Positions 6,085 through 24,948 of a stretch of DNA of 64,000 nucleotides are shown here, piece by piece (the first letter of the stretch is position 1; every line of letters starts with the position of its first letter). The notes beneath the pieces are model-generated. The model had not been told where the DNA came from. It did no database searches and worked only from the letters and a program-made list of their open reading frames with translations. The stretch comes from an uncultured Christensenella sp. Its GTDB lineage: Bacteria; Bacillota; Clostridia; Christensenellales; Borkfalkiaceae. The translations under genes were made by a program, and so were the position numbers. The DNA lies in contig CAJTJC010000007.1 in NCBI GenBank assembly GCA_910576655.1, forward strand, positions 17,363 through 81,362. The letters are read 5' to 3'.

Positions 6085-7629
6085 TTAATTAGCAGGATTT
6101 ACGTCTATTGACATAAGTCTAATCTGATTAATAGATGCAACGAACTCTATTGATGTTACAGCCGTAGCAAATTCAACAATTACGTCGTTGCCAGAAACAG
6201 TAACTGTAGCGCCGCTGATATTTGCAGCCTTAATAGCTTCTTCAAGATTTTTGGGATAATCGTTTTTAGCCTCTGTGCCGAACGCTTCAGCGCTATGGAA
6301 AACAATTTTTGTTATTCCTGCAAATTCAACCTTTATGGAAGAATTTTTATAGCAACGAACGGGGTCAGTATATTGCGTATTTACATTACTTGTACTACTA
6401 CCTTTCGAGTTCGTAAACGTAACTCCGTTATCTACCCAAACCTGCTCCTCTGTCGTAGCTACGGTACGCTTTGAGGTATCATTAAATGCAAGTGACCCGC
6501 TTGCACCAGGAACCACTGTAGCAGCGGCCTTAATTGTGATGGTTACGTCCTTGGTCGAGGTTGCCGAGCCGCAGGTTGCTGTAACGGTAACGACAACGGT
6601 TTTATCCTCGGTGGGAAGAGCCGCAACGTTCACTTTATCATCTGCAACCGTAGCTGCATCGCCCGATTTAAGAGCCCAAGCAAAAGTAACTGCTTCTTCG
6701 TCTGATAAGGGAAGAGCGGTTTCACCAACTCTGTTAATAGTCATATTCGCATTAACAGCTTCGAGTGCATCGGCTATCTTCTGGTCATCGGTTCTCTTAT
6801 CTTCAGCTTTTTCCAAAGCGTGACACTGAATACCCGTGCTGCCCTTATAGGTAACCTCAGGCTGAGGGTCGCCGGTTGCGCCTGCCTTAAGGTAATTCAT
6901 AAGGAAACCGCTTACGGTGATAAGGTCGCCTTTGCCTAAATCGCTATAGCTTTTAAGAATTTCGCCGTAATTGATACTGAGTATCATTATTGCGTCTTCG
7001 CTGTTCTTGTCTTTATCTTCAGCGTAGGTGTCCGCAATATAAACAAATCCTACTCTGGTGCCGCTATCTCTACCGCAGTCAACAACGTATCCCTTTACGT
7101 ATACAAGGGGAATTTCGTCGGTCTCTGCATACTTCTCGGCAATTTCCAACTTAGAAGCAAGCTCTTTCGCGTAAGAAGCCGAGTACGGGTCTTCAAGAGT
7201 GCCTTGGCTTTCTTTGCTTTTTGCGGTTACGGCTCTTTCATATTCGGCAGTGGCAGTTTCTTTGCCGACCGTAACGGAAGCTTTAAGCTTATATTCTATA
7301 GCCGTTTCTGCTTTCGTAACGCTTACAGTGTACTCTTTTTTGTCGTTCATTTCTGCGCTTACCTTAACGTAATCGTTGAGGTTATTGAAAGTAGCAGAGC
7401 TTACAGACCAATTTACGTTATACAGCTCGCCGTCAACTTTCGTCTGACCCAAAACGGTGTAATCGTTATCAATGGTCTTTTTGCCTTCGTACAACGAATT
7501 GATAGAGGCTATTGCCTTTTTTGCCACCTCCGCATCATTGCTTTCGCTTTCGCCGCCACAAGCAGCAAGCGAGCCTGCGCAGGTTACGCCCATTGTTAAT
7601 ACAAGAGCAGCACTGAGTAATTTTTTCAT
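6085..7629 (-). CDS. surface lipoprotein with OB-fold-like module, function unknown (candidate nucleic-acid-binding protein)
   Basis: Signal peptide plus lipobox LAAC-GG. A central segment (VYVKGYVVD...VGFVYIAD...GDLITVSGFL) resembles the OB-fold segments of the neighbouring thermonuclease. AAGGAGAA RBS. It is the last gene before the terminator. Confidence 0.6.
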   Translation of the reverse strand: MKKLLSAALVLTMGVTCAGSLAACGGESESNDAEVAKKAIASINSLYEGKKTIDNDYTVLGQTKVDGELYNVNWSVSSATFNNLNDYVKVSAEMNDKKEYTVSVTKAETAIEYKLKASVTVGKETATAEYERAVTAKSKESQGTLEDPYSASYAKELASKLEIAEKYAETDEIPLVYVKGYVVDCGRDSGTRVGFVYIADTYAEDKDKNSEDAIMILSINYGEILKSYSDLGKGDLITVSGFLMNYLKAGATGDPQPEVTYKGSTGIQCHALEKAEDKRTDDQKIADALEAVNANMTINRVGETALPLSDEEAVTFAWALKSGDAATVADDKVNVAALPTEDKTVVVTVTATCGSATSTKDVTITIKAAATVVPGASGSLAFNDTSKRTVATTEEQVWVDNGVTFTNSKGSSTSNVNTQYTDPVRCYKNSSIKVEFAGITKIVFHSAEAFGTEAKNDYPKNLEEAIKAANISGATVTVSGNDVIVEFATAVTSIEFVASINQIRLMSIDVNPAN

Positions 7630-7673
7630 TTGGTTCTCCTTATAAAAAATTTTTTAAACTGAATTAATTTTAT

Positions 7674-9035
7674 TTACGCTACTACCGTTATATAATCGGC
7701 ACGGTAACATTTAACCTGATATTCGCCGTTGAACTTTTCAATAAGCCCCTTGACGGTTATAGTTTTATTCAGGTATCTGTCTGCGGTAACAAGCTGACCG
7801 TTTTCGTCTTTAAGAACTTCGGTGCGAACCGTTATAGTCGTTCCGTCGGCAGCTTTACAAGTTATCGACATTGCGCCGTCACTCTGCCCGCCGTTGCTGG
7901 TAGTATAAATTTTAGTAACCGTCATGTTCGAAAGGGTTACGGTAGTACTCATTATAGCTTCACCGTAATTGATATTGACGGTTTCTTCCTCTTCGCCTTC
8001 TTCAAATCTGACGGCAAGTTTACCCGAAACGATATCCTTTGCGTCGGTTTCAACGAACGCCGCACTCTTATCCGTACTTATTACGTTCGAGTTCAAAGGG
8101 TCGTTAGGGTCGAATCCGTTGTAAGATACGCCTGAAATCTGGTAGGTTCCTTGGAATTCGGAAACGGTTCCGACTACGCTTACTTCGTTTCCTACAGTCA
8201 ATACCTCGAGTATTTTACCGCTTGTAAAGCCGTAATAAACCGCAAAGCCGAAATATACGCCCGTATCGGGGTCAAATTCCTCGATATAAACCGAGTTGCT
8301 GAATTCGGTAGTAACCACACCGGTAACCTTAACCTTCTTATTAGCGTAATCGGTCACGTGGCAGCGAAGCTCTTTCAGCGTTACCGGAATTGCCGTGCCG
8401 TAAAAGAAATCGGGGTCGTCCTCGTCAGAGAACACGAACAACTTCTTTGCTTTAGCCTGCGAAAGGGCGTTGCTGGCAATGGTGCCGTAGCGGTTACCCG
8501 CAGTGTTCGAACCTATTGCAAGACCTTCCTGCAAAATTTCCACGTTCAAATTTCTGTAATCGGTTGCGCCTGCGGGCTTATACCAAACCCAAAGCATATA
8601 CCTTTCACCTGTAGAGTCCACGTTCCAGCTACCGTCGTCCGATTCTACGATAATAGATTGGGCTGTTGCAAGCTTATTGTGAGTAAAGTCCGAAGCTTTT
8701 TTGCCCCACGGCTCGATTTTCCCGGTAGATTCGGGCGTATTTATAGCAAGGTATCTTGCTTTGATATATCCCTGCGTCTTTTCGAAATCAGACGGGTCGT
8801 AGCCGGTAATCGTTGAACTTTTAGGGTCGAAGTGCGTCGTGTCGCCGTCGATATAAAGGCGGACGTCCACTTCCTGCTTTTTGGTTTCACTCGTTAAATC
8901 AAGCTTAAGCTCGCTTACATAGTCGACGAATTCCGGCTCTTTAGACTCAGGGTCTTCACATGCTGCACAAAAAACGGGTATCGCTATCAGCGCAGCGCTG
9001 AGCGCCGAAATAAATATTTTAAAGCCTTTTCTCAT
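7674..9035 (-). CDS. secreted/lipoprotein thermonuclease (staphylococcal nuclease family) with C-terminal OB-fold domains
   Basis: SNase motifs YIDGDTTHF, ARYLAINTPES, WGKKASDFT, GERYMLWVWY and NVEILQEGLA. These are followed by two OB-like segments (VKVTGVVTTEF...VSVVGTVSEFQGTYQI and ITVKGLIEKFNGEYQV). There is an N-terminal signal peptide with Cys residues. Confidence 0.85.
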   Translation of the reverse strand: MRKGFKIFISALSAALIAIPVFCAACEDPESKEPEFVDYVSELKLDLTSETKKQEVDVRLYIDGDTTHFDPKSSTITGYDPSDFEKTQGYIKARYLAINTPESTGKIEPWGKKASDFTHNKLATAQSIIVESDDGSWNVDSTGERYMLWVWYKPAGATDYRNLNVEILQEGLAIGSNTAGNRYGTIASNALSQAKAKKLFVFSDEDDPDFFYGTAIPVTLKELRCHVTDYANKKVKVTGVVTTEFSNSVYIEEFDPDTGVYFGFAVYYGFTSGKILEVLTVGNEVSVVGTVSEFQGTYQISGVSYNGFDPNDPLNSNVISTDKSAAFVETDAKDIVSGKLAVRFEEGEEEETVNINYGEAIMSTTVTLSNMTVTKIYTTSNGGQSDGAMSITCKAADGTTITVRTEVLKDENGQLVTADRYLNKTITVKGLIEKFNGEYQVKCYRADYITVVA

Positions 9036-9038
9036 AAT

Positions 9039-10451
9039 TTAACCTGCAAAATATTCACATTCCTCGATAGCAGCTTTGAAGGTTTCGTTCAAATCTTTGC
9101 CTACGAATACCGCCTGCATCAAAGCGCCGACTTCGTCACGCGCCTTTGAAGAACCTACGAATGCGGGTGAAGTATAATACGCAGCTTCCTGCTCCATGCA
9201 TACCTTAGCCGCAAGATAAGTTACGTTTCCGAAACCGTTAGCTTCCGCCAGATATTTCTTATAAATTTCGTTTTCCAGTACCGTAGTTACTACGGGAACG
9301 TAACCGGACGCATCCGAGAACTGTGCCTGGAAATCGACGTTCGTAGTAAGATATTTGACAAGCAGCCAGCTTGCAAGTACTTCCTGCGGGTTGTTCTTTT
9401 TGAAAATACAAACCGAAGGGCCCTGCGAAATTACCTTGGGTTTAGCGGGGTTGACCTGAGGAATGGACGTGATACCTATTTCGAAAGGATATTCACCGTC
9501 AACTCTGTCGGGAGACTGGTTCTTTGCACCCGCGGACGAGCCTATGCTCATATAGCTTGCCTGTACCTTGAACAGGTTGGAGGTATATTTGTTGTCGTTA
9601 AGGCCCTGAGTGGTGAAATAGCCTTTATCATACCAACCCTTAAACCTCTGAACGAATTCGCGGTTTTCTTCGTTATCGAAAAGATATTTGTTACCCGTCG
9701 CCGAGGTATAGGGCGAACCGAGCTGTTCACACATCGTAATAAACCAGTTTGCTTCCGAGTCGTAGCCGAGAGGCGTTGACTGAGGCGCAATCTCTTTAAT
9801 CTTTTTGCAGGTTTCCTCCATTTCATCCCACGTCGTGGGCACTTTCAAATTGTTAGTCTCAAAGAAGGTCTTATTGTAATACAAAACCTCGGTTGATTTG
9901 GAGAAAGGCATAGTGTACATAGTGCTACCGTCGCCGAATTTGAAGCCTTCGTCATAGTAACCCTTGATAAATGCGTTCGTCTCCTCCTCGGTCAAGCAAA
10001 GCGATTCGGTAGTTCCATCCTTGCGGGTTACTTTCATATCGTTGTACCCGCTGTCCTTAAGGAAATCGTTGAGGGGCTGAACCGCACCCGACTGATTGAA
10101 AAGCGCAACGTGGTCAGGATAGCAATAAGCAAGGTTAGGCTCGTCACCGGAAATAATTTCTTTCGTTATCTGGTCGCGCACGTCGTCGTAACCGCCGATA
10201 GCCTCTTCCTTTACGGTTATATTGGGATAAACTTCCTTAAATTTGTCCAAATGTCTTTGGAGGATAGGTCTGTTATTCTGACCCATAGTGTGGTAAAACG
10301 TAATAGTCACCGGAGTTTCGGTATCGAAACCGCCGTCAGGCATTACGAATTCCGCTTTCTTAGGGCCGCATCCCGTTGAGAACGCTAAGCCCGCCGTCAC
10401 CGTGCAAGCCATAATGCTTGCCATAATAACTGCGCCAAATTTTTTCTTCAT
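9039..10451 (-). CDS. ABC transporter substrate-binding lipoprotein, family 1 (CUT1 / sugar-type)
   Basis: Lipobox FSTGC. Size is about 470 aa and the composition is that of MalE/UgpB-type binding proteins. It sits directly downstream of two MalF/MalG-type permeases. Confidence 0.8.
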   Translation of the reverse strand: MKKKFGAVIMASIMACTVTAGLAFSTGCGPKKAEFVMPDGGFDTETPVTITFYHTMGQNNRPILQRHLDKFKEVYPNITVKEEAIGGYDDVRDQITKEIISGDEPNLAYCYPDHVALFNQSGAVQPLNDFLKDSGYNDMKVTRKDGTTESLCLTEEETNAFIKGYYDEGFKFGDGSTMYTMPFSKSTEVLYYNKTFFETNNLKVPTTWDEMEETCKKIKEIAPQSTPLGYDSEANWFITMCEQLGSPYTSATGNKYLFDNEENREFVQRFKGWYDKGYFTTQGLNDNKYTSNLFKVQASYMSIGSSAGAKNQSPDRVDGEYPFEIGITSIPQVNPAKPKVISQGPSVCIFKKNNPQEVLASWLLVKYLTTNVDFQAQFSDASGYVPVVTTVLENEIYKKYLAEANGFGNVTYLAAKVCMEQEAAYYTSPAFVGSSKARDEVGALMQAVFVGKDLNETFKAAIEECEYFAG

Positions 10452-10495
10452 TCTGCTTCTCCTTATAATTTATAGTTTATATAAACTTTTAATTT

Positions 10496-11473
10496 TTAAC
10501 CTTTGATACCGCTTCTCGATACGCCTTTCATAATGTACTTACGGAAGAATATGAATACGAGTAAAAGCGGAATCGTTACAAGTACTACCGCTGCCATCTG
10601 CGCGGGATAGTTTATCGCCCCTTCGACTCCCTCTAAGCCCTCGACAGGCCAACTCGCTTGTCGTAGTCCGAGAGTAATCAGCTTATGCGCCGCATCGTTG
10701 GCGACAAGGCGAGGCCAAACGTACGAGTTCCACGCTCCCATCATTTTTAGAATGGTTATCGATATAAGCGTGGGCGCCGCAAGCGGGACCATTACTTTCC
10801 AAAGATACTTTAAATCGCTCGTTCCATCCACCTTCGCTGCAAGATAAAGCTCGTTCGGTATCTGCATAAAGTTCTGCCGCAGCAGATAAATGTAGAATAT
10901 ACTGACGAGGAAGGGTACGATTAGAACGGTGAAAGTATTTTTCCAGCCGAAATTCGATACGGTTACGAAGTTGGTAATCGTGAACAGCTCGCCGGGAATC
11001 ATCATCGTAGCCATCATTGCTGCAAACAGCGCGTTTTTGCCCTTAAATTCAAGGCGGGCAAACGCGTACGCCGAAAGCACGGTAACTACCAATGAAAGTA
11101 TCGTAGAAACTATACCTACAATGCAAGTATTTAAAAACAGTCTACCGAGATTAAGCTCGCCCGTAAACGCCGTTGCATAGTTCGACCACTCAAATTGTCT
11201 GGGCCACAGCGTGGGCACCGTTTCACTGTATTCTGCATAGGTTTTCAGCGAGGAAATAAGCATCCAATAGAAAGGAAACAGTACTGCCAACGCCATTATG
11301 CCGAGGAACAGATACAAACCCGTCTGAACTGCAATTTTCATTGCAATCTGTTTTTTTGAAACGGCGTTCATATCCTTCTTTTTCATTACGTAGGATTCAG
11401 CGGATTTTACCGCTTCGGTTGCAGGTTGTTCGGGGGTAACTTTTTCGTCAATATCGTTAATATTATCCGTCAT
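10496..11473 (-). CDS. ABC transporter permease (MalG-like, CUT1)
   Basis: Six predicted hydrophobic helices. It has the EAA-loop region AAKVDGTSDLKYLWKVMVPLAAP and an AGGTGA RBS. Confidence 0.9.
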   Translation of the reverse strand: MTDNINDIDEKVTPEQPATEAVKSAESYVMKKKDMNAVSKKQIAMKIAVQTGLYLFLGIMALAVLFPFYWMLISSLKTYAEYSETVPTLWPRQFEWSNYATAFTGELNLGRLFLNTCIVGIVSTILSLVVTVLSAYAFARLEFKGKNALFAAMMATMMIPGELFTITNFVTVSNFGWKNTFTVLIVPFLVSIFYIYLLRQNFMQIPNELYLAAKVDGTSDLKYLWKVMVPLAAPTLISITILKMMGAWNSYVWPRLVANDAAHKLITLGLRQASWPVEGLEGVEGAINYPAQMAAVVLVTIPLLLVFIFFRKYIMKGVSRSGIKG

Positions 11474-11483
11474 AAATCACCTC

Positions 11484-12416
11484 TTAATAATGTACCTTTT
11501 TCTTACTTACGTACATATTTACCATCGTTACGGCAAATATGATTGCAAAAAGAATTAACGCAGCCGCGCTTGCACGCCCCTGATTGTTATCCAAGCTTTG
11601 ATAGATATAACCGACCATAGTATTCAATACGTTTTTAGAACCTATGGGTCCCATATTTTCGCCGAATATACCGACAATACTCGTATATTCCTTGAAACCG
11701 CCTATGAAGCTTGTAATTACTACGTAAGCTATCATCGGTGAAAGAAGGGGTACGGTTATACGCCAGAAAGTACGGATACGCGAGGTACCGTCAACTTTCG
11801 CAGCTTCGTAATACTGTTTGTTTACGCTTTGAAGTCCACCCAAAAGCACGAGAATTTTAAAAGGCAACGCATTCCAAACGATGTAAATAATCAGCACTGC
11901 CATATTCGCCGCTTTGGACGAGTTGGGGTTAACCCAGTTTATCCTCGTACCGCCGAACGCCTCGATAATGGTGTTTATAATACCTATCGAGCCCTCCTGT
12001 CCCGCATAGCCCTTGACCATACTGAACATAGCCATGAAAACCATACCGATTGCAATCGAGTTGGTAACGTATGGAAGGAAGAAAATAGTCTGCATGGTTC
12101 TTCTGATAAACTTTATCGAGTTGAGCGCAACAGCTATAATCAGCGCAAGCATCGTGGAAATGGGCACCGTTACCAGACAGAGAATCATCGTATTGCCGAG
12201 GCAGTTAACAAAGCCGCGGTATTTTGTTACGTTTACAAAGTTGTCGAAACCAAATTCGAATTTCTGACCGCCGATTAAACCAAGCTCGTTATAGTCTTTC
12301 AGAAAAGCCATTCTGAGCGTGTTGATTATTGGCCACACCGTAAATATCGCAAGAATAATCAATGCGGGCAAAAGATACAGCCAGGCTTTCCACTGGTTCT
12401 TCTTTTTACTATCCAT
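11484..12416 (-). CDS. ABC transporter permease (MalF-like, CUT1)
   Basis: EAA loop EAAKVDGTSRIRTFWRITVPLLSP and multiple hydrophobic helices. Confidence 0.9.
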   Translation of the reverse strand: MDSKKKNQWKAWLYLLPALIILAIFTVWPIINTLRMAFLKDYNELGLIGGQKFEFGFDNFVNVTKYRGFVNCLGNTMILCLVTVPISTMLALIIAVALNSIKFIRRTMQTIFFLPYVTNSIAIGMVFMAMFSMVKGYAGQEGSIGIINTIIEAFGGTRINWVNPNSSKAANMAVLIIYIVWNALPFKILVLLGGLQSVNKQYYEAAKVDGTSRIRTFWRITVPLLSPMIAYVVITSFIGGFKEYTSIVGIFGENMGPIGSKNVLNTMVGYIYQSLDNNQGRASAAALILFAIIFAVTMVNMYVSKKKVHY

Positions 12417-12421
12417 AACGA

Positions 12422-14155
12422 TTAACCCTCGCTATCGTTTTTCGTCGCTGTCGACGATTTTTTAGTCGCAGGCTTCTTTGCCGTTGCGGGTTTAGCCGCA
12501 GTTGATTTCGTTGCAGAAGCCTTTGCCGTTGCGGGTTTAGCCGCGGTCGTCTTCGTTGCGGACGTCTTTGCCGTTGCGGGTTTAGCCGCGGTCGTCTTCG
12601 TTGCGGACGTCTTTGTCGTTGCGGGTTTAGCCGCGGTCGTCTTCGTTGCGGACGTCTTTGTCGTTGCAGGCTTTTTAACGGGAGCTTCCTTTACTTCTTC
12701 GGCAACCGCTTCAACCTTTTCTTCGGCAACGGGCTCCGCCTTAATCTCCTCGACCTTTACCTCTTCGGTCACCGCCTCTTCTGCGATAGGCGCGGCAATT
12801 TCCGCAGGGGCTTCGACGGGCACGACGGGTTCTTGCAGAACCTCTGCGGACTCCGATTTCGGCTCTTCCTTCTTTTTGGAGAACAGACTCTTGACAGAGC
12901 TGACGCCCTTGGCAAACAGACTCTGCTTTATTACGGGCGCAGTCTTTTCCTTCAATTTGTCATCCGCTTCGCGGGGCAAAGGACCGTCGTGTGCAACGAA
13001 AACGTGACCTTCTGCCGCCATTTCGGCAACCATTGCCTCGTGTGCGGCAAGCTGCTCACCGAAGTAAACGCGCTCTTCCGATTCTTTATTGAAAATGAAT
13101 ACTTTATGTTGTTTTAAATTGAATTTTACTTCCGTGCCTGCAATATTGCCCATTTCGTCTGCGGAAATTATCGAACGGACTACGGGATTTAAAGAGCATT
13201 CGCTTGTAGAAACCACGGACACGTCTCTGCCCATCACGTCCACGCCCGAAACCGAGCAAGTCAGCTTGCCCTTTTTATCGAGAATAAATCCTTCGGGACG
13301 GACACCGACGTAAACTTCCTGATTTTCTACCCCCTTAACGTCCAGAACCTGCTCGTTTCCGATATAGAGCTTGCCGCCTTCGATTTTTCCGGAGAAGACG
13401 TTGATAGGGGGCGCGCCGAGGAATTTTGCGACGAACAAATTTGCAGGGTCGTCGTAAACCCACTGGGGCTTACCCGTCTGCATTACTACGCCCAGTTTCA
13501 TAACGACTATGTAATCGGAAATAGACATTGCCTCTTCCTGGTCGTGCGTTACGAATATAGTCGTAATTTTCGTGCTTCTCTGAATTCTTCTTATTTCTTC
13601 GCGGGTCTGCAATCTTAATCTTGCGTCAAGATTAGAAAGAGGCTCGTCAAGAAGAAGGACGCGCGGCATTTTTACAAGTGCGCGAGCGATTGCGACGCGC
13701 TGCTGTTGTCCGCCCGAAAGCTCGGACGGTTTACGGTTCATATACTCGTCAATCTGAACAAGTTTAGCAACCTCGGTGGCACGTGTCAGCATCTCCTCCT
13801 TTGAGAGCCTGTTTTCACCTTTTAAATTTTGTAAAGGGAATAAAATATTCTGTTGAACCGTCATGTGCGGATAGAGCGCATAGTTCTGGAAAACCAGACC
13901 TATACCCCTGTTTTCAGGTGAAAGCTTGGTTACTTCGTCTTCGCCGAAGAAAATTTTACCGCTCGTCGGCGCCTGCAAACCGCTTATCATATAAAGCGTG
14001 GTACTTTTTCCGCAGCCCGACGGACCTAAAAGACCGATAAGCTTGCCGTCGGGGATTTCAAGATTAAAATCGTTTACGGCGATAACTTCGGCATTTTTAT
14101 CCTTCTTGTTACGGCTTGGAAAGATTTTTGTAAGGTTTTGTAATACAACTTTCAT
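12422..14155 (-). CDS. ABC transporter ATP-binding protein (MalK/MsmX-like) with a roughly 200 aa low-complexity C-terminal tail
   Basis: Walker A GPSGCGKST, signature LSGGQQQR, Walker B LLLDEP and a MalK-type regulatory domain to about aa 375. After that come an acidic Pro/Glu/Val/Ala-rich stretch and KPAT(T/A)KTSATKTTAA repeats. Confidence 0.9.
   Translation of the reverse strand: MKVVLQNLTKIFPSRNKKDKNAEVIAVNDFNLEIPDGKLIGLLGPSGCGKSTTLYMISGLQAPTSGKIFFGEDEVTKLSPENRGIGLVFQNYALYPHMTVQQNILFPLQNLKGENRLSKEEMLTRATEVAKLVQIDEYMNRKPSELSGGQQQRVAIARALVKMPRVLLLDEPLSNLDARLRLQTREEIRRIQRSTKITTIFVTHDQEEAMSISDYIVVMKLGVVMQTGKPQWVYDDPANLFVAKFLGAPPINVFSGKIEGGKLYIGNEQVLDVKGVENQEVYVGVRPEGFILDKKGKLTCSVSGVDVMGRDVSVVSTSECSLNPVVRSIISADEMGNIAGTEVKFNLKQHKVFIFNKESEERVYFGEQLAAHEAMVAEMAAEGHVFVAHDGPLPREADDKLKEKTAPVIKQSLFAKGVSSVKSLFSKKKEEPKSESAEVLQEPVVPVEAPAEIAAPIAEEAVTEEVKVEEIKAEPVAEEKVEAVAEEVKEAPVKKPATTKTSATKTTAAKPATTKTSATKTTAAKPATAKTSATKTTAAKPATAKASATKSTAAKPATAKKPATKKSSTATKNDSEG
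12481..12672 (-). repeat. in-frame 45 bp tandem repeat (4 full copies plus partial copies) inside the ATPase tail
   Basis: Copies lie at 12481-12525, 12526-12570, 12571-12615 and 12616-12660. Copies 2 and 3 are identical and copy 4 differs by 1 nt. Each copy encodes a 15 aa KPATxKTSATKTTAA unit. Confidence 0.95.
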
Positions 14156-14185
14156 ACTTTTTCCTATTCTTGTTTATTTTTATTT

Positions 14186-15040
14186 TTATTGATTTTTTGA
14201 ATTTTCTACGGTCTGCTTATGCTGAAGCGTCTTTCTTTCAAGCATTTCTTCTTCGGACTGAAAAATCATTTGCAGCTTCATATCAACTGCCACCGTATAC
14301 GCGATTATATCGTGAATAGGCGTTTTATTTTTCGTAACGAAAAATAAAACCGTATTCATAATTAATATCGCCGCAAGCAAGACTAACGCCAGTATACCGA
14401 GCCCCCCGAATATGAACAGGAATACAAGCAGTACGGGGAACATGGTTTCAATTGCGAATTTACCTAGAAAAGCTCTTGCAAACAGAGACAAAGTAGATAT
14501 TTTAACGCAGTCGGCACGAACTATACATATTCCGAATACTTTTTTGCCCACCGTCTGTCCGTTTTTTAAAAACAACGGCACTACAAATTCAAGTATGGCG
14601 TATGCAAGGAAAATCCCGAGAGAAACCATCATAAACAGTAAGCTGTAAACGTACTTGTACTGCGCGTTGACCTTTTCCACGGGCGTAAGCGATTTGAACT
14701 TAGCGTATGCCGCCGCAGTTTCGGGGTGTTCGCCGTTCGAAGCGTCAAGCTTTTCCATCACCGCCCCGAGCGACGATTCTATGCCGTCTTTTTTAATGAC
14801 GTACCCGTCCTCTTTTTCTTCGTAAGTAAAGCCGTAATAATCAGCAACGCCGCCGACGTACTCTTTTCGGAAATCTTCCCATTCCTCAAAGTATTGACCC
14901 GATAATTTTTCTTCGTGACTGTAATTGCATATAAGCGAAATAATGAACATAAACCCGGTAGTTAAAACTGCAAGAAGAATAACGTCGAGCAGAAGGGCTG
15001 AAGCCCTTTTAACTATACCGATTTTCCTTAGTTCAAACAT
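14186..15040 (-). CDS. RDD-family integral membrane protein
   Basis: N-terminus KRASALLLDVILLAV and the later NGQTVGKKVFGICIV are characteristic of RDD domains, and there are several TM helices. The start was moved to the ATG at 15040 (GGAGTGA RBS), because the listed ATG at 15097 lies inside the predicted -10 box. Confidence 0.7.
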   Translation of the reverse strand: MFELRKIGIVKRASALLLDVILLAVLTTGFMFIISLICNYSHEEKLSGQYFEEWEDFRKEYVGGVADYYGFTYEEKEDGYVIKKDGIESSLGAVMEKLDASNGEHPETAAAYAKFKSLTPVEKVNAQYKYVYSLLFMMVSLGIFLAYAILEFVVPLFLKNGQTVGKKVFGICIVRADCVKISTLSLFARAFLGKFAIETMFPVLLVFLFIFGGLGILALVLLAAILIMNTVLFFVTKNKTPIHDIIAYTVAVDMKLQMIFQSEEEMLERKTLQHKQTVENSKNQ

Positions 15041-15124: not shown

Positions 15125-15169
15125 TGGGTTTATCAAAAATTTATTGTGAAATTAGCACAAGTTTTTCAC

Positions 15170-17937: not shown

Positions 17938-17951
17938 TCCACTTCCTCCCT

Positions 17952-18563
17952 TTATGAAAGCTTATGATTTATACATCCGATTATTACGTCCAGCGCGACG
18001 GCGTTATGCCCGCCCTCGGGGACGATTATGTCCGCACGGCGTTTGTACGGTTCTACAAACTGCTCGTGCATGGGTTTTACCGTCGACTGATACTGATTGA
18101 CGACCGAGTCGAGACTTCTGCCCCTCTCGTTGACGTCCCTCATTATACGGCGCAGGATACGAACGTCCGCGTCCGTGTCGACGTAAATTTTTATATCGAA
18201 AAGGTTACAAAGCTTTGCGTTTTCAAACAACAGTATTCCCTCTACTATAATTATACGGTTGCTTTCGACGCGGGTTGTTTCTTCCTTTCGTAAATGATTT
18301 CTGTAATCGTACTGCGGCACCTCTACCGCGTTTCCCTTTTTAAGCTCTTTAATGTGCCTGATAAACAGGTCGGTTTCAAAGGCGTCGGGGTGGTCGTAGT
18401 TGCACTTCGCCCTTTCCTCGAACGGTATCGACGCGTCGCTTTTATAGTAGCTGTCCATGCCGAGCAGGGTCGAGCAGGAAGCGAATTCGTCGTAAATTTT
18501 TTCGGCAAGCGTCGTTTTACCGCTACCCGTTCCGCCGCAAATGCCTATAACCACTCTGTTCAT
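17952..18563 (-). CDS. udk: uridine kinase
   Basis: P-loop [13 protein letters not shown], plus [13 protein letters not shown] and IIIVEGIL, typical of Udk. Confidence 0.9.
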
Positions 18564-19144
18564 TACGAACGCTCCTTCGCCAGCCGTTCAAGCCAGCACT
18601 TCCTGCACATCGCCACGTAGCGGTCGTTTCCGCCTATACAGACCTGCGACCCCTCGGTAACCACTCTGCCGCGTCCGTCCAGCCGCGCGTTGACGGTAGC
18701 CTTAGCGCCGCAGGTGCAGACCGACTTTATTTCGGTTATAGACTGAGCTATTTCGAAAAGCCGCTTACTGCCGGGGAAAAGATGTGTGGTAAAATCGGTA
18801 CTAAGCCCGAAGCAAAGCACGGGAACGTCCTTCTTTATCACTATATCGGCAAGTTGGTCCACCTGCTCGGGGGTGAGAAACTGGCACTCGTCCACGATTA
18901 TCACGTTACAGTCGGGAAACTCGTTAACGTACTTGTCGTAGACGTTTTCGCTCTCTTTTACGGTCACCGCCTCGTTTTGCAGACCTATGCGCGATTTTAC
19001 TGTATCCGCGCCGTCGCGGTCGTCGATTGCGGGCTTCAAGAGCAGCACCTTCATATTGCGCTCTTCGTAATTGAATTTGGTTATCAGCGCCTGCGCCGTT
19101 TTCGAGCAGCCCATTGCCCCGAACTTGAAGTATAACTTTGCCAT
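18563..19144 (-). CDS. tdk: thymidine kinase
   Basis: GAMGCSKT P-loop, [10 protein letters not shown], and the C-terminal Cys cluster CTCGAKA...CRKCW typical of type II thymidine kinases. Confidence 0.9.
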
Positions 19145-19181
19145 ATAACCCTTTAACCTACGTATATTAATTTTCGTCTGT

Positions 19182-20483
19182 TTACTCGACTATGCAGTAA
19201 ACGAGAGGCTCTTCGGCGGGTTTGTCTTTGCAGACCTCTGTTGCGGAAAGCAAAATTTCTTCCGCCCTTGCGAACGATTGCTTATTGCACGAGTACAGCG
19301 TTGCTATTTCCTCGCCCGCCTTTACGAAGTCGCCCGTCTTGCGCTTCAAAATAATGCCGGCGCTGTAATCTATTTCGTCCTCTACGGTGTTGCGGCCCGC
19401 GCCGAGCGCGAGCGAAGCAAGCCCGTACGCCTCGGTATCGACCGCGCCGATATATCCGTCCCTGACGCTTTTGACCGCATGCGAATATTTTGCCTTTGCG
19501 AAAGTTGCGGGGTTTTCGATAAGCTTTTTATTGCCGCCCTGCGCCCCTACCGTTTCGATAAGCTTTTTAAGCGCGCTGCCGTCGGCGATAGCCTTTTCCG
19601 CCATTGCCCTGCACTCTTCCGCGCTGCCCTTACCCGCAAGCGAAAGCATATACGCCGCAAGCGTCAGGCACACCTCGGTAAAGTCCGCGGGTCCCTTGCC
19701 TTGCAAGGTTTCAACCGCCTCGATAACTTCCAGCGAGTTGCCTATCGCGCGACCGAGCGGTCTGTCCATATTCGTTATAAGCGCGACCATTTTCTTGCCT
19801 GCGCTCTTGCCTATGTCGACCATTAATTTGGCAAGCGCCTTGCTGTCCTCTACCGTCTTCATAAACGAGCCGCTGCCCGTCTTTACGTCCAAAACGATGC
19901 AGTCGTCGTCCGCGGCAAGCTTTTTGCCCATTATGCTTGCGGCGATAAGAGGCATACTGTCTACCGTTGCCGTAACGTCGCGCAGAGCGTAAAGCTTTTT
20001 ATCTGCAGGAGCGAACTGCCGCGACTGCCCGACGATTGCAAAGCCTATGTCGTTGACCTGCTTCATAAAATCGGCGTCTGACAGAGTAGTCTGAAAGCCA
20101 TCGATAGCTTCGAGCTTGTCGATGGTTCCGCCCGTGTGCCCCAAGCCCCTGCCGCTCATTTTGGCGACCTTTACGCCGAGCGAGGCGACTATGGGCGCGA
20201 CTACGAGGCTGGTCTTATCCCCGACGCCGCCCGTCGAATGTTTGTCTACGCGTATTCCGTTGATTTCCGAAAAGTCGAGCCTGTCGCCCGAATCGCGGAC
20301 GGCAAAGGTCAAATCGCAGGTTTCCCTGCTCGTCATTCCCTTGAAATAAATCGCCATGCAAAGCGCGGAAATCTGATAGTCGGGAATAGAGCCGTCCGTA
20401 ACCCCCTTTACGAAATAGTTGATTTCTTCGGTGGACAGCTCGCCTCCGTCGCGTTTCTTTTTGATAACGTCGTACATTCTCAT
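19182..20483 (-). CDS. pdp: pyrimidine-nucleoside phosphorylase
   Basis: MRMYDVIKKKRDGGELS, DKHSTGGVGDK and SGRGLGHTGGTIDKLE are typical. The start was moved to the ATG at 20483, which removes the overlap with the upstream gene. Confidence 0.9.
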   Translation of the reverse strand: MRMYDVIKKKRDGGELSTEEINYFVKGVTDGSIPDYQISALCMAIYFKGMTSRETCDLTFAVRDSGDRLDFSEINGIRVDKHSTGGVGDKTSLVVAPIVASLGVKVAKMSGRGLGHTGGTIDKLEAIDGFQTTLSDADFMKQVNDIGFAIVGQSRQFAPADKKLYALRDVTATVDSMPLIAASIMGKKLAADDDCIVLDVKTGSGSFMKTVEDSKALAKLMVDIGKSAGKKMVALITNMDRPLGRAIGNSLEVIEAVETLQGKGPADFTEVCLTLAAYMLSLAGKGSAEECRAMAEKAIADGSALKKLIETVGAQGGNKKLIENPATFAKAKYSHAVKSVRDGYIGAVDTEAYGLASLALGAGRNTVEDEIDYSAGIILKRKTGDFVKAGEEIATLYSCNKQSFARAEEILLSATEVCKDKPAEEPLVYCIVE

Positions 20484-20502
20484 ATTTAATATTCCCCTTT
20501 TT

Positions 20503-21996
20503 TTAATGTTTCCAGCCGCCGCCGGCAACGAAGTCCGCAAGCAAATCCCTCGCGTACTTTTCGCCGCCCAGCCGCGCGACCTCGGTTATACGGTTGTATC
20601 TGTACGTGGACGAATAGCTGTCCACGATAATGTAATAATAGCTATCGTCCGAAATTTCGGACGCCTTTAACGCAGTAAAGCAATAATAGTTGTCCGCGCC
20701 CGACAAAAACCGCGACTTTAAGTCCGAGCCCTTGATTTTGCCGAGAACGATATCGTTATCGAACGGCAGAACGGAGAACAGCTGCGCGTAGGTAACGCTG
20801 CCCGCTTCTATTCTGTAAGGGCTGCGCAGCTTCAAATACCCGCCGCCGAGCGCGATTTTATATTCGCCGCCCCACTGTTTTACGCCCGTTTCGTAATAAA
20901 GTTTTGCAAGCAATGTGCAAACCTCTGTCGAATTGCGTCGCGCGGAGTTGGTCCCGAGCACGGTCGTGTAAGGATTGTCGGTCGGAAAATATTTATCGAA
21001 CAGCTCGCCCACTACGGGGTCGCTTGCGCCGCTCGCGTAAACGCTGCTGCTTATAAGCCTTGGCTTAACGGTGAATTCCCTCGTCGCCCTGTTCAGCGAA
21101 ACCTCGGCAGAGCTTACGAAGCTGTTTTCGCCGCCGCCCTGCAAATGGTAAACGCCGTGTTCGTCCTTTAAAATATAGCGCTGGTGAGTGTGTCCCTCGA
21201 AAACCAAATCGACGTAGCCGTCGGACAGCGAAACGTCGTAATAGCTTGAAATTTCGCGCGAGGAAACCTCGTTAACGCTCGAAGCGGAAAAGCTTTCGCC
21301 GTATCCGTCGTGAATGGAATATACTATAAATTCGCAGCCTTCCGCCCTCAGCTTTTTCGACTCCGCCTTGACAAGCGAGGTCAGCGCGCCGCCCGTCGCA
21401 AATTGCAGTCCTGCGGTGAAATCGCCCGAAATCGAGCCGAGGCAGTCGCCTATCGCGCCGATTATACCGATTTTTACACCGCCCCTTTCCACTACGGTGG
21501 AAGCGCGGCAGTAATCCGCGGGCTTGCCGTTTTGGGTTACGTTGATTGCGAGGAACGGAAATTCCGCCAGCTCGCTGTTGGGCTTTAACACCTGCGAGCC
21601 CCAGTCGTACTCGTGATTGCCGAGCGTCATCGCCGCAAAGTCGAGCTCGTTCATCCATTCGGTGAGAAGCCGCCCCTTGTTGGTGGAGGATTCCACGGTG
21701 CCCTGCCAGGTATCGCCCGAAGAGAGCAAAATTTCTTCGCGGGCGGGGTCGGCGTACAGCGCCTTCATATAGGCGGTAAATTCGTCCAAACCGGGCTGAA
21801 CGTCGGTGTCGATATACTTGCCGTGCAGGTCGTTTATCGCATAAAAAGACAGTTCTACCGTCATCCTTTCGCCGCAGCCGTCGCAAAGCCCGTTGCCGTC
21901 GGCGTCCGCGTGTTTATGTACTTCCGCTCCGCAGCCCGCCGCACATAGCGCAACCGCCGCGGCACAGACCGTCGAAAGCCTTAAAAGCTTACCCAT
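20503..21996 (-). CDS. lipoprotein metallophosphatase / 5'-nucleotidase family (UshA/CpdB-like)
   Basis: Lipobox CAAGC. Calcineurin-type motifs NDLHG, SGDTWQG, LGNHEYDWG and EGHTH, with a nucleotidase-like C-terminal half. Confidence 0.8.
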   Translation of the reverse strand: MGKLLRLSTVCAAAVALCAAGCGAEVHKHADADGNGLCDGCGERMTVELSFYAINDLHGKYIDTDVQPGLDEFTAYMKALYADPAREEILLSSGDTWQGTVESSTNKGRLLTEWMNELDFAAMTLGNHEYDWGSQVLKPNSELAEFPFLAINVTQNGKPADYCRASTVVERGGVKIGIIGAIGDCLGSISGDFTAGLQFATGGALTSLVKAESKKLRAEGCEFIVYSIHDGYGESFSASSVNEVSSREISSYYDVSLSDGYVDLVFEGHTHQRYILKDEHGVYHLQGGGENSFVSSAEVSLNRATREFTVKPRLISSSVYASGASDPVVGELFDKYFPTDNPYTTVLGTNSARRNSTEVCTLLAKLYYETGVKQWGGEYKIALGGGYLKLRSPYRIEAGSVTYAQLFSVLPFDNDIVLGKIKGSDLKSRFLSGADNYYCFTALKASEISDDSYYYIIVDSYSSTYRYNRITEVARLGGEKYARDLLADFVAGGGWKH

Positions 21997-21999
21997 ATG

Positions 22000-22404
22000 T
22001 TATAAATCTTTATCAGTAAACGCGAAAGGCAACAGCTTATCGAGCGTGTACTCTTTAATAGAGTTTTCGTTGCCGAGGATAATTCTGAAATCTTTTCCGC
22101 AGAACTCGGCTATTACCTGCCTGCAAACGCCGCAGGGCGCGCAGAAGTCAGCCGTTTCGCCCTCTCTGCCGCCGATAATGGCAATCGCCTCGAATTCGCG
22201 CTCGCCCTCGGAAACGGCTTTAAAAATCGCGGTGCGCTCGGCACAGTTACCGGGCGTGAACGCCGCATTTTCTATATTGCAGCCGGTGTAAATCTTTCCA
22301 CTTTTGGTAAGCAGAGCCGCGCCCACGCAATAATGCGAGTACGGCGTATAGGCCGTTTGGCGCGCTTTCTGAGCCGCAGTCATCAATGCTTTGTTGTCAA
22401 TCAT
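22000..22404 (-). CDS. cdd: cytidine deaminase
   Basis: Zinc motifs CAERTAI and PCGVCRQV. Length is 134 aa. Confidence 0.9.
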   Translation of the reverse strand: MIDNKALMTAAQKARQTAYTPYSHYCVGAALLTKSGKIYTGCNIENAAFTPGNCAERTAIFKAVSEGEREFEAIAIIGGREGETADFCAPCGVCRQVIAEFCGKDFRIILGNENSIKEYTLDKLLPFAFTDKDL

Positions 22405-23564
22405 TTTTTAACCTCTCCTAAAAAGCTTTCGCCGCGCGTGTCTTCCTTGCCGACACCGAAGTAATCCAATACCGTCGCGCTTATATCGGCAAAGCTCGAA
22501 CGCGTGCCGAGGTTTACTCCGCTCTTTATCGAATTGCCGTATATCAGCATGGGCGTGTACTCGCGCGAATGGTCGGTGGACGGCGTTGCGGGGTCGCAAC
22601 CGTGGTCCGCCGTGATAAGAAGAACGTCGTCCTCTTTCATATCCTTTATAAACGAAATCAAAAACCCGTCGAACTCGGTCGCAGCCGCGGCGTAGCCCGC
22701 CACGTCGTTTCTATGACCGTATTTCATATCGAAATCGACGAGATTGACAAAACACAGACCCGAGAAATCTCTTCCCTGCATCTTTTTGGTCACCTCCATA
22801 CCGTGAGTATTCGAGGTGGTGCGGTTGCTTTCGGAAACTCCGCTGCCCGCAAATATATCGTAAATTTTTCCGACTGAAATCGTTTCGTAGCCCGCGCGCT
22901 GCAAGACGTTAAGCATGGTGTCCGCAGGCGGCAGAAGCGAAAAGTCGTGTCTGTTCGAAGTGCGCGAATAAGGATATTCGCCGTTGAAGGGACGCGCGAT
23001 AACTCTGCCTACGCCGTGCTTGCCGACGAGCATTTCGCGCGCGATTTCGCAATATTTATAAAGCTGCTCCACGGGGACGACGTCCTCGTGCGCGGCAATC
23101 TGGAAAACGCTGTCCGCCGAGGTGTAGACGATAAGCGCGCCCGTTTCCACGTGCTCGCGCCCGTAGTCCTTTATTACCTCGGTACCAGAATAGGGCTTGT
23201 TGCAGATAACCTTTCTGCCCGTCTTGCTTTCGAATTGCTTTATAACGTCCTCGGGAAATCCGTCGGGATAGGTCGGCAGTGGCTCGGGCGAAATTATACC
23301 CGCAATTTCCCAGTGACCGATAGTCGTATCCTTGCCCATAGACCGCTCGCTCATTTTCGCATAGCTTGCAGCGGGCGCGCTTACGCCGCCGCCGACGCCG
23401 TCTATGTTGAAAAGTCCCATTCTTTCAAGCTCGGGACATTTAAAGTTGGGGTGGTTTCTTATCGCTCCCAGTGTGTTGCTGCCCTCGTCGTGCCAGAGGT
23501 GCGCGTCGGGAAGCTCGCCTATGCCGAAGCTGTCAAGTACAATAAGGAAAAATCTTTTAGCCAT
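22401..23564 (-). CDS. deoB: phosphopentomutase
   Basis: [22 protein letters not shown]-terminus, NLVDFDMKYGHRND and TADHGCDP. The start was moved to the ATG at 23564, which overlaps the deoD stop (TAATG). Confidence 0.9.
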   Translation of the reverse strand: MAKRFFLIVLDSFGIGELPDAHLWHDEGSNTLGAIRNHPNFKCPELERMGLFNIDGVGGGVSAPAASYAKMSERSMGKDTTIGHWEIAGIISPEPLPTYPDGFPEDVIKQFESKTGRKVICNKPYSGTEVIKDYGREHVETGALIVYTSADSVFQIAAHEDVVPVEQLYKYCEIAREMLVGKHGVGRVIARPFNGEYPYSRTSNRHDFSLLPPADTMLNVLQRAGYETISVGKIYDIFAGSGVSESNRTTSNTHGMEVTKKMQGRDFSGLCFVNLVDFDMKYGHRNDVAGYAAAATEFDGFLISFIKDMKEDDVLLITADHGCDPATPSTDHSREYTPMLIYGNSIKSGVNLGTRSSFADISATVLDYFGVGKEDTRGESFLGEVKK

Positions 23565-24292
23565 TACGCAAGCTCCAAAGCAATTTTCATCATCGCGGTG
23601 AACGAGTTCTGCCTTTCCTCTGCGGTGGTATTCTCTTCGGGGTGAAGGAAGCTGTCGCTTACGGTGCAGATGCAAAGCGCCTTTTTACCTGCGCGTGCTG
23701 CGTTGCAGTAAAGCGCGGCGCTTTCCATTTCAACGCCGAGCACGCCCATTTTGGCCCACTGCATACCGCTGTTCGCGTCGTCGTAGAACATATCAGACGA
23801 GAATATGTTGCCGACCTTGTAGTTGACGCCCGCCTGCTCGCAGAGCTCGGCAGCCCTTCTTATAAGCGAAAAATCCGCAATAGGGCAGAACGTGCCGGGC
23901 AGGTTGTACTGCATTGCGTAGTTGCCGTTGGTGCAAGCGCCCTGCGCTATTATAATGTCGCGGACGTGCAAATCTTTGTCGAACGAGCCGCAGCTGCCTA
24001 TGCGGATAATGCTTTTTACGCCGTAGAAATTATACAGCTCGTACGAGTAAATGCCGATAGACGGCTGACCCATACCCGAAGCCATAACCGAAACGCGCTT
24101 GCCCTTGTAGTAGCCCGTATATCCGTTTACGCCGCGCACGTTGTTGACGAGGACGGCGTTCTCCAAAAAGTTATCTGCAATGAATTTCGCCCTCAAAGGG
24201 TCGCCGGGCATCAGCACGGTTTCGGCGAAATCGCCGTAGTTCGCCGTAATGTGCGGCGTAGGTACGTTGGGGTGCTTTACGTCTTTACTCAT
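23564..24292 (-). CDS. deoD: purine nucleoside phosphorylase, DeoD type
   Basis: [28 protein letters not shown] and [12 protein letters not shown] closely follow the E. coli DeoD pattern. Confidence 0.9.
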
Positions 24293-24948
24293 ATTAAATT
24301 TTCCTCCTTAGCCAGTTTAATAATTCGAGATGTGCCCAATCTGTCCGCGCCGAGAGAAACGAAGTCTTCGGCGTCCTGCAACGAGGAAATTCCGCCCGCC
24401 GCCTTTATTTTTACGCCCTCGCCGACGTGCTTTGCGAAAATTTCAACGTCCTCGCGCGTGGCTCCCGCAGTCGAGAAGCCCGTCGAGGTTTTGATATAGT
24501 CCGCTTTTGCCGCGGTGACTATTTCGCACATCTTTATTTTCTCTTCCTCGGTAAGAAGGCAGGTTTCGATTATTACCTTTAAAATTTTGTCGCTGCATAC
24601 GGACTTGATTGCCGTAATTTCGTCCTGAATTTTATCGTAAAACTTTGCCTTTAAATCGCCGATATTTATGACCATATCGATTTCGTCCGCGCCGTTTTTA
24701 ACCGCGTCGTAGGTTTCGAAAACCTTTACGTCCTTGGTGTTGTAGCCGTTCGGAAAGCCGATAACCGTGCAAATTGCAATTCTGCCGTTTGCATACTTTT
24801 TCGCTTCCGCAACGAAATACGGCGGAATACACACCGACGCGCAGGCATACTTTATGCCGTCGTCGATAAGCTGCTTTATGTCCGCCCACGTTGCCGTCAC
24901 CGAAAGGTTGGTATGGTCGCACTTGCCTAAAATGTCTTTAATGTCCAT
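24289..24948 (-). CDS. deoC: deoxyribose-phosphate aldolase
   Basis: [19 protein letters not shown] (Schiff-base Lys region) and KAAGGI. Length is 219 aa. It is the first gene behind a consensus promoter. Confidence 0.9.

Follow-up and report, generated by a model that had tools for sequence, protein, structure and literature searches.

A probable two-module nucleic-acid scavenging locus in an uncultured gut Clostridia bacterium, with oligonucleotide-type import favoured

Described nuclease-importer loci and a Clostridial relative

Multipartite 'DNA-degradation loci' that bring together nucleases, phosphohydrolases and an ATP-binding cassette (ABC) importer have been described in Izemoplasmatales, with an explicit analogy to polysaccharide utilisation loci (PULs) and the statement that such multipartite organisation was undescribed in other microorganisms (Wasmund et al. 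2021, PMC8289736). The 'nucleic acid-degradation locus' of Hujiaoplasma, which comprises an extracellular ribonuclease, NrnA, a nucleoid-associated protein, RecR and ABC transporters, responds to DNA/RNA with an induction of up to 27-fold (Zheng et al. 2023, PMC10470597), and in Xianfuyuplasma the locus genes are induced on DNA, which also stimulates growth (Zheng et al. 2021, PMC8397711). SNase-ABC operons of Mycoplasma have been known since 2007-2013; they are co-transcribed, as is the SNase gene with the ABC genes in M. agalactiae, and were proposed to supply the importer with nucleic-acid precursors (PMC3585158). Here we analysed a 64,000-nucleotide (nt) stretch of DNA, hereafter the window, from an uncultured Christensenella sp. 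(contig CAJTJC010000007.1), in which a row of minus-strand genes at 6085-24948 resembles these loci. We read this row as what is probably a two-module nucleic-acid scavenging locus of a gut Clostridia bacterium, with an oligonucleotide-type import favoured. An initial annotation, made from the letters of the sequence, had largely reached the right functional reading: gene identities, export signals, motifs and synteny all agree with the coherent locus for extracellular nucleic-acid scavenging and catabolism that it proposed. It had also presented the coupling of nucleases, nucleotidase and importer as not known as a described system, whereas nuclease-importer loci and the same PUL analogy were already in print (PMC8289736; PMC3585158).

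The part of the row that ties it to these reports is module A (6085-15040), which encodes an RDD-family membrane protein, an ABC importer with its binding lipoprotein, an SNase lipoprotein and a lipoprotein with an OB fold. A HMMER search with the binding protein among 1.84 billion cluster representatives retrieved 417 clusters at E <= 1e-30, in which members with 35-45% identity were recorded as Bacilli or 'Phytoplasma' metagenome-assembled genomes (MAGs), and a search seeded from such a member reached Acholeplasma laidlawii, Alteracholeplasma palmae, Haploplasma axanthum and A. hippikon. The loci of A. laidlawii and A. palmae and two further Acholeplasma-like loci share the order ATPase, permease, permease, binding protein, a large aBig_2/OB/lamin-tail protein and a lamin-tail plus SNase protein. 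After these, A. laidlawii, A. palmae and L098 have an orthologous pair of DHH genes, which L097 lacks; the first and second members of the pair match, respectively, the first and second of two tandem NrnA-like DHH genes beside the window's row (3368-5311, plus strand) with 36-41% identity. By tblastn, the window proteins match the Acholeplasma loci at 42-50% identity for the permeases, 31-35% for the binding protein (E 1e-69 to 1e-76) and 53-63% for the ATPase; RDD and nucleotidase genes are missing there, and in A. palmae dnaX, ybaB and recR are among the genes that come next. The Izemoplasma loci themselves were compared by their published description, with the Acholeplasma-type loci as proxies in the sequence comparison. 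The concept is already known, and module A is homologous to the Acholeplasma versions of the published loci; on this homology module A appears to be an ancient cassette common to thousands of gut Clostridia, Acholeplasmatales and other Mollicutes.

Like the DNA-degradation loci, the window co-locates exported nucleases with an ABC importer, phosphohydrolases/3'-5' nucleases (NrnA/DHH) and a presumed nucleic-acid-binding surface protein, and with the Acholeplasma proxies it shares the binding-protein subfamily, the importer gene order and the DHH pair. It differs in lacking a Pst phosphate transporter (no Pst-type genes were found in the 64-kb window) and in its surface lipoprotein of 514 amino acids (aa), which has OB and aBig_2 domains but no lamin-tail domain, whereas the Acholeplasma counterparts have all three. 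What is new here is the host, a walled gut Clostridia lineage, the added RDD membrane protein, and the union with a full deo/salvage operon that has a consensus promoter: the cassette stands behind deoC-deoD-deoB-cdd-pdp-tdk-udk, endonuclease I and a lipoprotein nucleotidase, with one strong promoter in front. Our literature searches found no description of this Clostridial, deo-fused form.

The Mycoplasma operons (mhp379, MAG_5040 with P80, MPN133, MHO_0730) likewise set a lipoprotein SNase beside a binding lipoprotein, an ATPase and two permeases. Unlike the window's row, they serve to gain essential precursors and carry no catabolic deo genes, and their SNase gene lies upstream of the transporter genes rather than downstream of the binding-protein gene. 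The window's match to Mycoplasma proteins was a sub-threshold hit to the NCBIfam P68 lipoprotein model (E = 2e-4; 19.8 bits against a cut-off of 200). To Bacteroidota PULs the likeness is one of logic and an analogy only (surface binding, surface depolymerisation, oligomer import, cytoplasmic finishing), as the window lacks SusC/SusD and has the single-membrane, Gram-positive lipoprotein/ABC architecture. One homologous cassette, present in hundreds of protein clusters, would join three literatures, namely those on Mycoplasma virulence nucleases, marine Izemoplasma loci and gut Clostridia.

An importer module joined to a deo module in one clade

We compared gene order among relatives with an RDD-anchored genome scan, which used narrow peptide patterns and gave at least 7 loci, complemented by a binding-protein-anchored metagenome scan that gave 80 loci at 54-60% identity, mostly from gut samples. 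Nine close loci, seven of them GTDB species representatives (binding protein 57-69% and RDD protein 62-69% identical), keep the order deoC-deoD-deoB-cdd-nucleotidase-pdp-(tdk)-(udk)-EndoI-(198-aa)-RDD-ATPase-permease-permease-binding protein-SNase-OB/Ig wherever the contig reaches. The genes in brackets are those that vary: among the relatives tdk occurs only in loci L006 and L007, and udk at this position only in the window. These close relatives are gut MAGs whose hosts include mouse and rabbit among others, and they are listed under the names 'uncultured Christensenella sp.', 'Clostridia bacterium' or 'Clostridiales bacterium'.

Among the metagenome loci, the SNase gene lies directly 3' of the binding-protein gene in 67 of the 68 with enough sequence, and RDD precedes the ATPase gene in 44 of 45. 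No deo, pdp, cdd, kinase, EndoI or nucleotidase gene was found upstream of RDD in any of the 33 loci with at least 4 kb there; the 10-kb flanks stop short of deoB/deoC, and the verdict that module B is absent draws on the genes that the flanks do cover, namely pdp, EndoI and the nucleotidase gene. The arrangement recurs in a 'Ruminococcaceae' MAG, with RDD, ABC genes, binding protein and SNase beside a convergent surE-DHH-DHH and without the deo block. Moreover, the GC content at third codon positions (GC3) is 0.41-0.54 from the gene for the 514-aa lipoprotein through EndoI (6085-17937), and 0.60-0.71 from udk through deoC (17952-24948) and in the flanking genes, a step that would fit two modules differing in history or in expression.

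These comparisons divide the row into module A, a conserved unit with its own conserved promoter, and module B (15170-24948), whose union with module A is confined to a narrow clade of gut Clostridia. The initial annotation had named conservation of gene order in relatives as a check, and its loss between the nuclease/transporter and deo genes as a refutation: the whole order stood in the nine closest loci and was lost outside that clade. Its picture of the deo genes as coupled to the nuclease/transporter set in one unit gives way to a clade-specific coupling, given the 0 of 33 in wider relatives and the differing GC3 of the two halves.

Both modules begin at a promoter. The main one, TTGACA-17-TATAAT at 25010-24982 on the minus strand, is the sole 12/12 match in the region, lies 62 nt 5' of the deoC ATG and comes just after the terminator (25027-25057) of the upstream gene; a TTGACT-17-TATAAT stands 58-68 nt before deoC in all four relative loci (4/4). 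The internal one, TTGATT-17-TATAAT at 15124-15096 (minus strand; 10/12 match), falls inside a 129-nt gap, 84 nt 5' of the RDD ATG, and TTGnTT-17/18-TATAAT recurs 74-83 nt before RDD in seven of nine relative loci. The row ends at a bidirectional intrinsic terminator at 6043-6076 (both strands), with a 15-bp stem and T-runs on either side, which is common to the convergent surE operon. All three signals had been called from the letters and were found again. An uncultured Clostridia lineage would thus have the entire path from the polymer to a glycolytic intermediate encoded behind a pair of conserved promoters.

The description of the locus as self-contained drew its borders too narrowly, as the genes at 2163-6033 across the terminator are conserved partners. 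They comprise surE (5302-6033, plus strand), a cytoplasmic 5'/3'-nucleotidase of 243 aa (TIGR00087, 171 bits against a cut-off of 135) and conserved convergent neighbour of the locus; the two NrnA-like DHH/DHHA1 phosphoesterases of 321 and 325 aa (NF053633 NrnA, E = 1.7e-75 and 7.4e-71, below cut-off), which have intact DHH and GGGH motifs and no signal peptide and are predicted to be cytoplasmic; and a 405-aa fusion of NT5C (5'-deoxynucleotidase) with a guanylate-kinase-like domain (2163-3380, minus strand; PF06941 and PF00625). Wherever the contig of a close relative extends that far, the surE/DHH pair/NT5C block is found with the locus, and in L003, L012, L013 and several metagenome loci the NT5C fusion again adjoins the DHH pair. 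The fusion itself combines a dephosphorylating 5'(3')-deoxyribonucleotidase domain and a kinase-like domain in one polypeptide.

With the classical deo operons (E. coli deoCABD; B. subtilis dra-nupC-pdp) the window shares clustered, translationally coupled deoC, deoB, deoD, pdp and cdd, and the deoC/deoB/phosphorylase junctions overlap by 1-4 nt, so that co-transcription is predicted. Unlike those operons, the window's operon has exported nucleases and a nucleotidase inserted and is accompanied by neither a DeoR/CytR regulator gene nor a NupC-type or Bmp-type nucleoside transporter.

The binding lipoprotein and the imported substrate

The substrate-binding lipoprotein (470 aa; 9039-10451, minus strand; PF13416/PF01547) belongs to the phosphodiester-binding branch of the CUT1 family. 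Its nearest solved structure by family profile is a T. thermophilus protein (PDB 7C0F-7C1B; E = 8e-22, where the next family reaches 3e-16 and E. coli UgpB 5e-16). The same protein ranked first by fold (E = 1e-24; template modelling (TM) score 0.82), for a model with a predicted local distance difference test score (pLDDT) of 90. The PDB titles name it a dinucleotide-binding ABC protein with endogenous uridylyl-3'-5'-phospho-guanosine (UpG) bound, and the paper on it is Chandravanshi et al. (2021, FEBS J), as cited in PMC12718374.

Eight mutant positions were read from the PDB titles and mapped through a HMMER alignment, their role in ligand contact being presumed from the mutant list. They correspond, from Thermus to the window, as Y56 to Y88, F79 to Y111, N81 to D113, S127 to S186, Y224 to Y289, T240 to S305, Y246 to N311 and Q274 to Q343, so that four are identical, three conservative and one different (N311 against Tyr246). 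The subfamily consensus (Y, Y, D, S, Y, S, Y, Q) has five identical and three conservative. In an alignment of 24 sequences from Clostridia and Acholeplasmatales, the window residue is common to 19-24 of the 24 members at seven of the eight positions; at position 311, Tyr occurs in 20 of the 24 and Asn in the window.

The importer had been taken for a dedicated nucleoside-type system, for which Bmp/PnrA proteins (PF02608 with CUT2-type permeases) would be expected. What the window encodes is a Ugp-like CUT1 system, with PF13416/PF01547 in the binding protein, PF00528 permeases, a UgpC/MalK-like ATPase and a dinucleotide-binding protein as nearest solved relative, and this makes it doubtful that the products are dephosphorylated and then imported as nucleosides. 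The nucleoside-binding lipoprotein P48 of Mycoplasma, which we take to be a Bmp/PnrA-type protein, was tried as a relative and rejected, as it belongs to a different family from the CUT1 binding protein. Its own paper describes P48 only as a nucleoside-binding ABC component.

Staphylococcal-type nucleases of the SNase family yield 3'-phosphorylated mono- and dinucleotides and short oligonucleotides. Such SNase products, 3'-phosphorylated nucleotides and short oligonucleotides, are the substrates of NrnA and SurE. Together, the pocket residues, the ancient linkage to the NrnA pair (with SurE in Clostridia) and this product chemistry suggest import of dinucleoside phosphates or very short oligonucleotides, which we favour over import of free nucleosides. 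More tentatively, the core and the NrnA pair may form a widespread di-/oligonucleotide uptake system of Firmicutes and Mollicutes in which limit-products are imported intact, a proposal that we hold to be plausible rather than probable. Such uptake could be likened to that of peptides via Opp or of oligosaccharides via CUT1 systems, with finishing inside the cell. To our knowledge, no importer of that kind has been functionally demonstrated, and the published readings of homologous loci that we know assume nucleosides, nucleobases or 'nucleotides'. A literature search on oligonucleotide uptake linking NrnA and ABC transporters likewise found no papers. The T. thermophilus system, the best profile and fold match of the window's binding lipoprotein, differs in that transport was never shown there, and we know of no nuclease context for it.

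In the order of steps that we infer for a nutritional use of the locus, the OB-fold lipoprotein would hold DNA or RNA on the surface, where endonuclease I (released) and SNase (tethered) would cut the polymer to mono-, di- and short oligonucleotides and the lipoprotein nucleotidase would remove terminal phosphates. The importer would then take in phosphodiester fragments, most likely dinucleoside phosphates or very short oligonucleotides, and the two NrnA-type DHH enzymes with SurE/NT5C would convert these to nucleosides in the cytoplasm. Module B would complete the route, with DeoD and Pdp phosphorolysing nucleosides, Cdd deaminating them and Tdk and Udk re-phosphorylating them, while the pentose would enter glycolysis via DeoB and DeoC.

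Several points weigh against this reading. Identity to the T. thermophilus dinucleotide-binding protein is about 20%, and the UgpB of Mycobacterium tuberculosis (Mtb), the next structural match, is nearly equal to it (2e-23 vs 1e-24). Part of the conserved pocket is the Tyr/Ser phosphate-binding set common to Ugp-like proteins (PMC12718374), which would indicate a phosphodiester ligand generally, not a dinucleotide specifically. The NrnA pair lies within 10 kb, in various orientations, in only 8 of 20 full-length wider relatives and 21 of 80 overall. NrnA also has housekeeping roles. A surface nucleotidase within the operon, together with nucleoside kinases and phosphorylases in the cytoplasm, would fit nucleoside import equally well, and the two modules may be transcribed and regulated separately.

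The version proposed by the initial annotation, in which digestion to nucleosides is completed outside the cell, a dedicated nucleoside ABC importer takes them up and NrnA/SurE serve housekeeping, draws on that nucleotidase and on the fact that every cytoplasmic enzyme of module B acts on nucleosides; the Izemoplasma importer has also been read as 'probable nucleoside or nucleobase transporters' (Wasmund et al., PMC8289736). We nevertheless consider it rather unlikely, as characterised nucleoside ABC importers use Bmp/PnrA-type binding proteins, whereas the window's CUT1 protein groups with dinucleotide- and glycerophosphodiester-binding proteins. The nucleotidase is missing both from the wider cassette (0/33) and from the Acholeplasma loci, and the NrnA pair recurs with the importer, in conserved order, over phylum-level distance.

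Improbable in our view is a mainly non-nutritional role of the nucleases, such as reshaping the extracellular DNA (eDNA) of biofilms, freeing the cell from host DNA traps or removing competing DNA, with an importer for a sugar or glycerophosphodiester and an incidental adjacency of the deo genes. The Mycoplasma homologues have indeed been studied as virulence factors that degrade neutrophil extracellular traps (NETs), the binding protein is classed with sugar or glycerol-3-phosphate (G3P) binders in the NCBIfam and JGI annotations, and the deo linkage is limited to one clade. Against this, the SNase gene is tied to the binding-protein gene in nearly all metagenome loci (67/68) and likewise in Acholeplasma, the nuclease genes stand under the same promoters as catabolic or transport genes, and homologous loci are induced by DNA/RNA in organisms that grow on DNA (PMC8397711, PMC10470597). 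Very improbable indeed is an assembly artefact in which a metagenome bin joined two unrelated operons: the GC3 jump between the endonuclease I and udk genes, about 0.5 on the one side and about 0.65 on the other, might suggest one, but the pdp/tdk-EndoI-RDD junction recurs in MAGs and metagenome contigs that were assembled independently and come from different hosts. The other end is spanned by an independent contig of MAG GCA_949841615.1, 100% identical from SNase to NT5C, and misassembly was rejected on the strength of these independent contigs.

Import of dinucleoside phosphates or very short oligonucleotides leads to the prediction that the binding lipoprotein binds NpN or short oligonucleotides and that the paired NrnA enzymes are needed for their use. 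If true, this would add a new substrate class for ABC importers and alter models of extracellular nucleic-acid turnover; if false, the locus would still fit neatly, and without surprise, into a class already described. DNA and RNA of dietary, host and microbial origin form an abundant, little-studied nutrient pool in the gut. The main value of the locus would lie in a testable oligonucleotide-type ABC importer common to gut Firmicutes and Mollicutes.

Gene products, signals and surroundings

A renewed survey of open reading frames (ORFs) upheld the single strand, gene content and coordinates of the row at 6085-24948. It counted 17 consecutive minus-strand ORFs, with no additional ORF in the gaps; the initial annotation had given 19, although its own list also holds 17. 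Start codons were revised for deoB (ATG 23564), pdp (ATG 20483) and RDD (ATG 15040), after which the tight packing that had been described holds, all junctions being overlaps or gaps of at most 44 nt except for the 129 nt before RDD. Every enzyme assignment was borne out by Pfam and NCBIfam profile matches: deoC, deoD, deoB, cdd, pdp, tdk and udk score above curated NCBIfam cut-offs, and Pfam matches cover Endonuclease_1 with Big_2, Metallophos/5_nucleotid_C, RDD, ABC_tran, two BPD_transp_1, SBP_bac_1/8 and SNase. Five of the products bear a lipobox, namely SNase, the nucleotidase, the binding protein and the proteins of 198 and 514 aa; in endonuclease I the signal peptide comes without a good one. 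With these export signals and the retained catalytic motifs given below, the enzymes claimed to act outside the cell are predicted to be exported and active.

In agreement with the initial annotation, no regulator gene of DeoR/CytR type lies within the locus or next to it, in a search made for genes and not for operator sites. Rfam detected no riboswitch or leader, either with gathering scores over the whole window or in E-value mode over the locus. A hit to BSnc120, a Brucella small RNA, at 6010-6091 (plus strand; E = 0.025 and 26.5 bits, where the gathering score is 114) falls on the terminator hairpin and was dismissed as chance.

Module A opens with the RDD-family polytopic membrane protein (284 aa; 14186-15040, minus strand, as are all genes of the row; PF06271, E = 3.9e-11). 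We know of no established function for this family; as the almost invariant first gene of the Clostridia importer cassette, RDD has in its constant partnership with an ABC importer a functional lead. The ABC ATPase (12422-14155; PF00005) is UgpC/MalK-like (UgpC-type NF008653, E = 4e-102), and the two CUT1-type permeases (310 aa, 11484-12416; 325 aa, 10496-11473) carry PF00528.

The ATPase extends about 215 aa past its MalK-like regulatory domain (12422-13070), with a conserved GPLPREADD segment, an amphipathic stretch, an acidic A/E/P/V linker and basic KPATxKTSATKTTAA repeats, in that order. A 45-nt tandem repeat (12475-12667; 4.3 copies at 93% match) codes for the basic tail, which is weakly similar to histone-H1-like Hc2; the tail occurs in L001, L003 and L008 and is missing from L006, L007 and L011, and Acholeplasma ATPases have instead a ~160-aa insertion near residue 115. 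A cytoplasmic ABC ATPase with such a putative nucleic-acid- or membrane-binding tail is unusual.

The SNase (thermonuclease-fold) lipoprotein (453 aa; 7674-9035; PF00565, 35.9 bits against a cut-off of 21) has a beta-rich C-terminal half, and its gene follows the binding-protein gene, whose product also bears a lipobox, after 3 nt. Its D63/D65, R94, T100, E102 and R145 are invariant in an alignment of 10 orthologues that includes Alteracholeplasma palmae; we take these to be D19/D21, R35, T41, E43 and R87 of staphylococcal nuclease. OB folds in the C-terminal half are possible (hhalign 70% probability, Pfam E = 0.016).

The 514-aa lipoprotein (6085-7629) consists, in an AlphaFold2 (AF2) model built on 30 homologues (pLDDT 85), of four domains: a beta domain, an OB fold (~175-270), an aBig_2 Ig-like domain (302-368) and a C-terminal beta-sandwich. 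Across the family aBig_2 is found in 26 of 30 members and the PF01336 OB fold in 6 of 30. The OB-fold call of the initial annotation was upheld transitively, as a profile of residues 165-280 matched the PF01336 segment of homologue P0143 (hhalign 99.2%, E = 2.5e-19). The protein itself gave no direct family match, Pfam on the excised OB-like segment and phmmer against the PDB returned nothing, no catalytic domain was found, and whole-chain Foldseek of the model returned generic Ig/cadherin bead-strings only (TM < 0.25). From its domains, the lipoprotein is presumed to capture nucleic acid at the surface.

In module B, the first genes are deoC (deoxyribose-phosphate aldolase, 219 aa, 24289-24948; TIGR00126, 230 bits against a cut-off of 117; Pfam DeoC), deoD (purine nucleoside phosphorylase, 242 aa, 23564-24292; TIGR00107, 294 against 232) and deoB (phosphopentomutase, 387 aa, 22401-23564; NF003766, 501 against 256). 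The deoB ATG overlaps the deoD stop by 1 nt, and the alignments of relatives begin at residue 38. Then come cdd (cytidine deaminase, 134 aa, 22000-22404; NF004064, 153 against 74) and the putative lipoprotein nucleotidase of the UshA/CpdB metallophosphoesterase family (497 aa, 20503-21996; Pfam Metallophos and 5_nucleotid_C; lipobox AAGC). The nucleotidase retains the motifs DLHG, GD, GNHE and GHTH (GHxH); its best NCBIfam models, 2',3'-cyclic phosphodiesterase/3'-/5'-nucleotidase and UshA, both score far under cut-off, and it may act on 5' or 3' phosphates.

Downstream of the nucleotidase gene, pdp (pyrimidine-nucleoside phosphorylase, 433 aa, 19182-20483; NF004747, 577.5 bits against 559), tdk (thymidine kinase, 193 aa, 18563-19144; NF003300, 237.5 against 195) and udk (uridine kinase, 203 aa, 17952-18563; NF004018, 291 against 180) lead to the exported endonuclease I of the EndA/Vvn family, which carries Big_2 Ig-like domains (721 aa, 15772-17937; PF04231, E = 8.7e-33; Big_2, E = 6.5e-30) and whose EH and DLHxxxPAxxxxNxxRS motifs align to Vvn. 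The last gene encodes a 198-aa lipoprotein without a family match (15170-15766; lipobox LGGC), which lies between endonuclease I and the internal promoter and occurs otherwise only in L006 (37% identity).

The locus is preceded immediately upstream by genes for giant exported proteins (25077-48601, minus strand), a run that is not conserved beside it in relatives. The run comprises a 2059-aa lipoprotein with Listeria-Bacteroides repeats, a 1462-aa Big_3 protein, proteins of 796, 780 and 183 aa without a Pfam match, and a 2513-aa subtilase with PA, Big_2 and BspA-type LRR domains. An Opp-type peptide ABC system at 48833-56140 (minus strand) encodes two oligo_HPY ATPases, two permeases and an unusually long, 928-aa SBP_bac_5 protein. 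This Opp system follows downstream of the subtilase gene, an extracellular depolymerase beside an oligomer importer, in parallel to the nucleic-acid locus. At 57606-62060 (plus strand), genes for an HMGL-like enzyme (citramalate/homocitrate/isopropylmalate-synthase-type), an aconitase-family protein and an isocitrate/isopropylmalate dehydrogenase form an ordinary metabolic operon.

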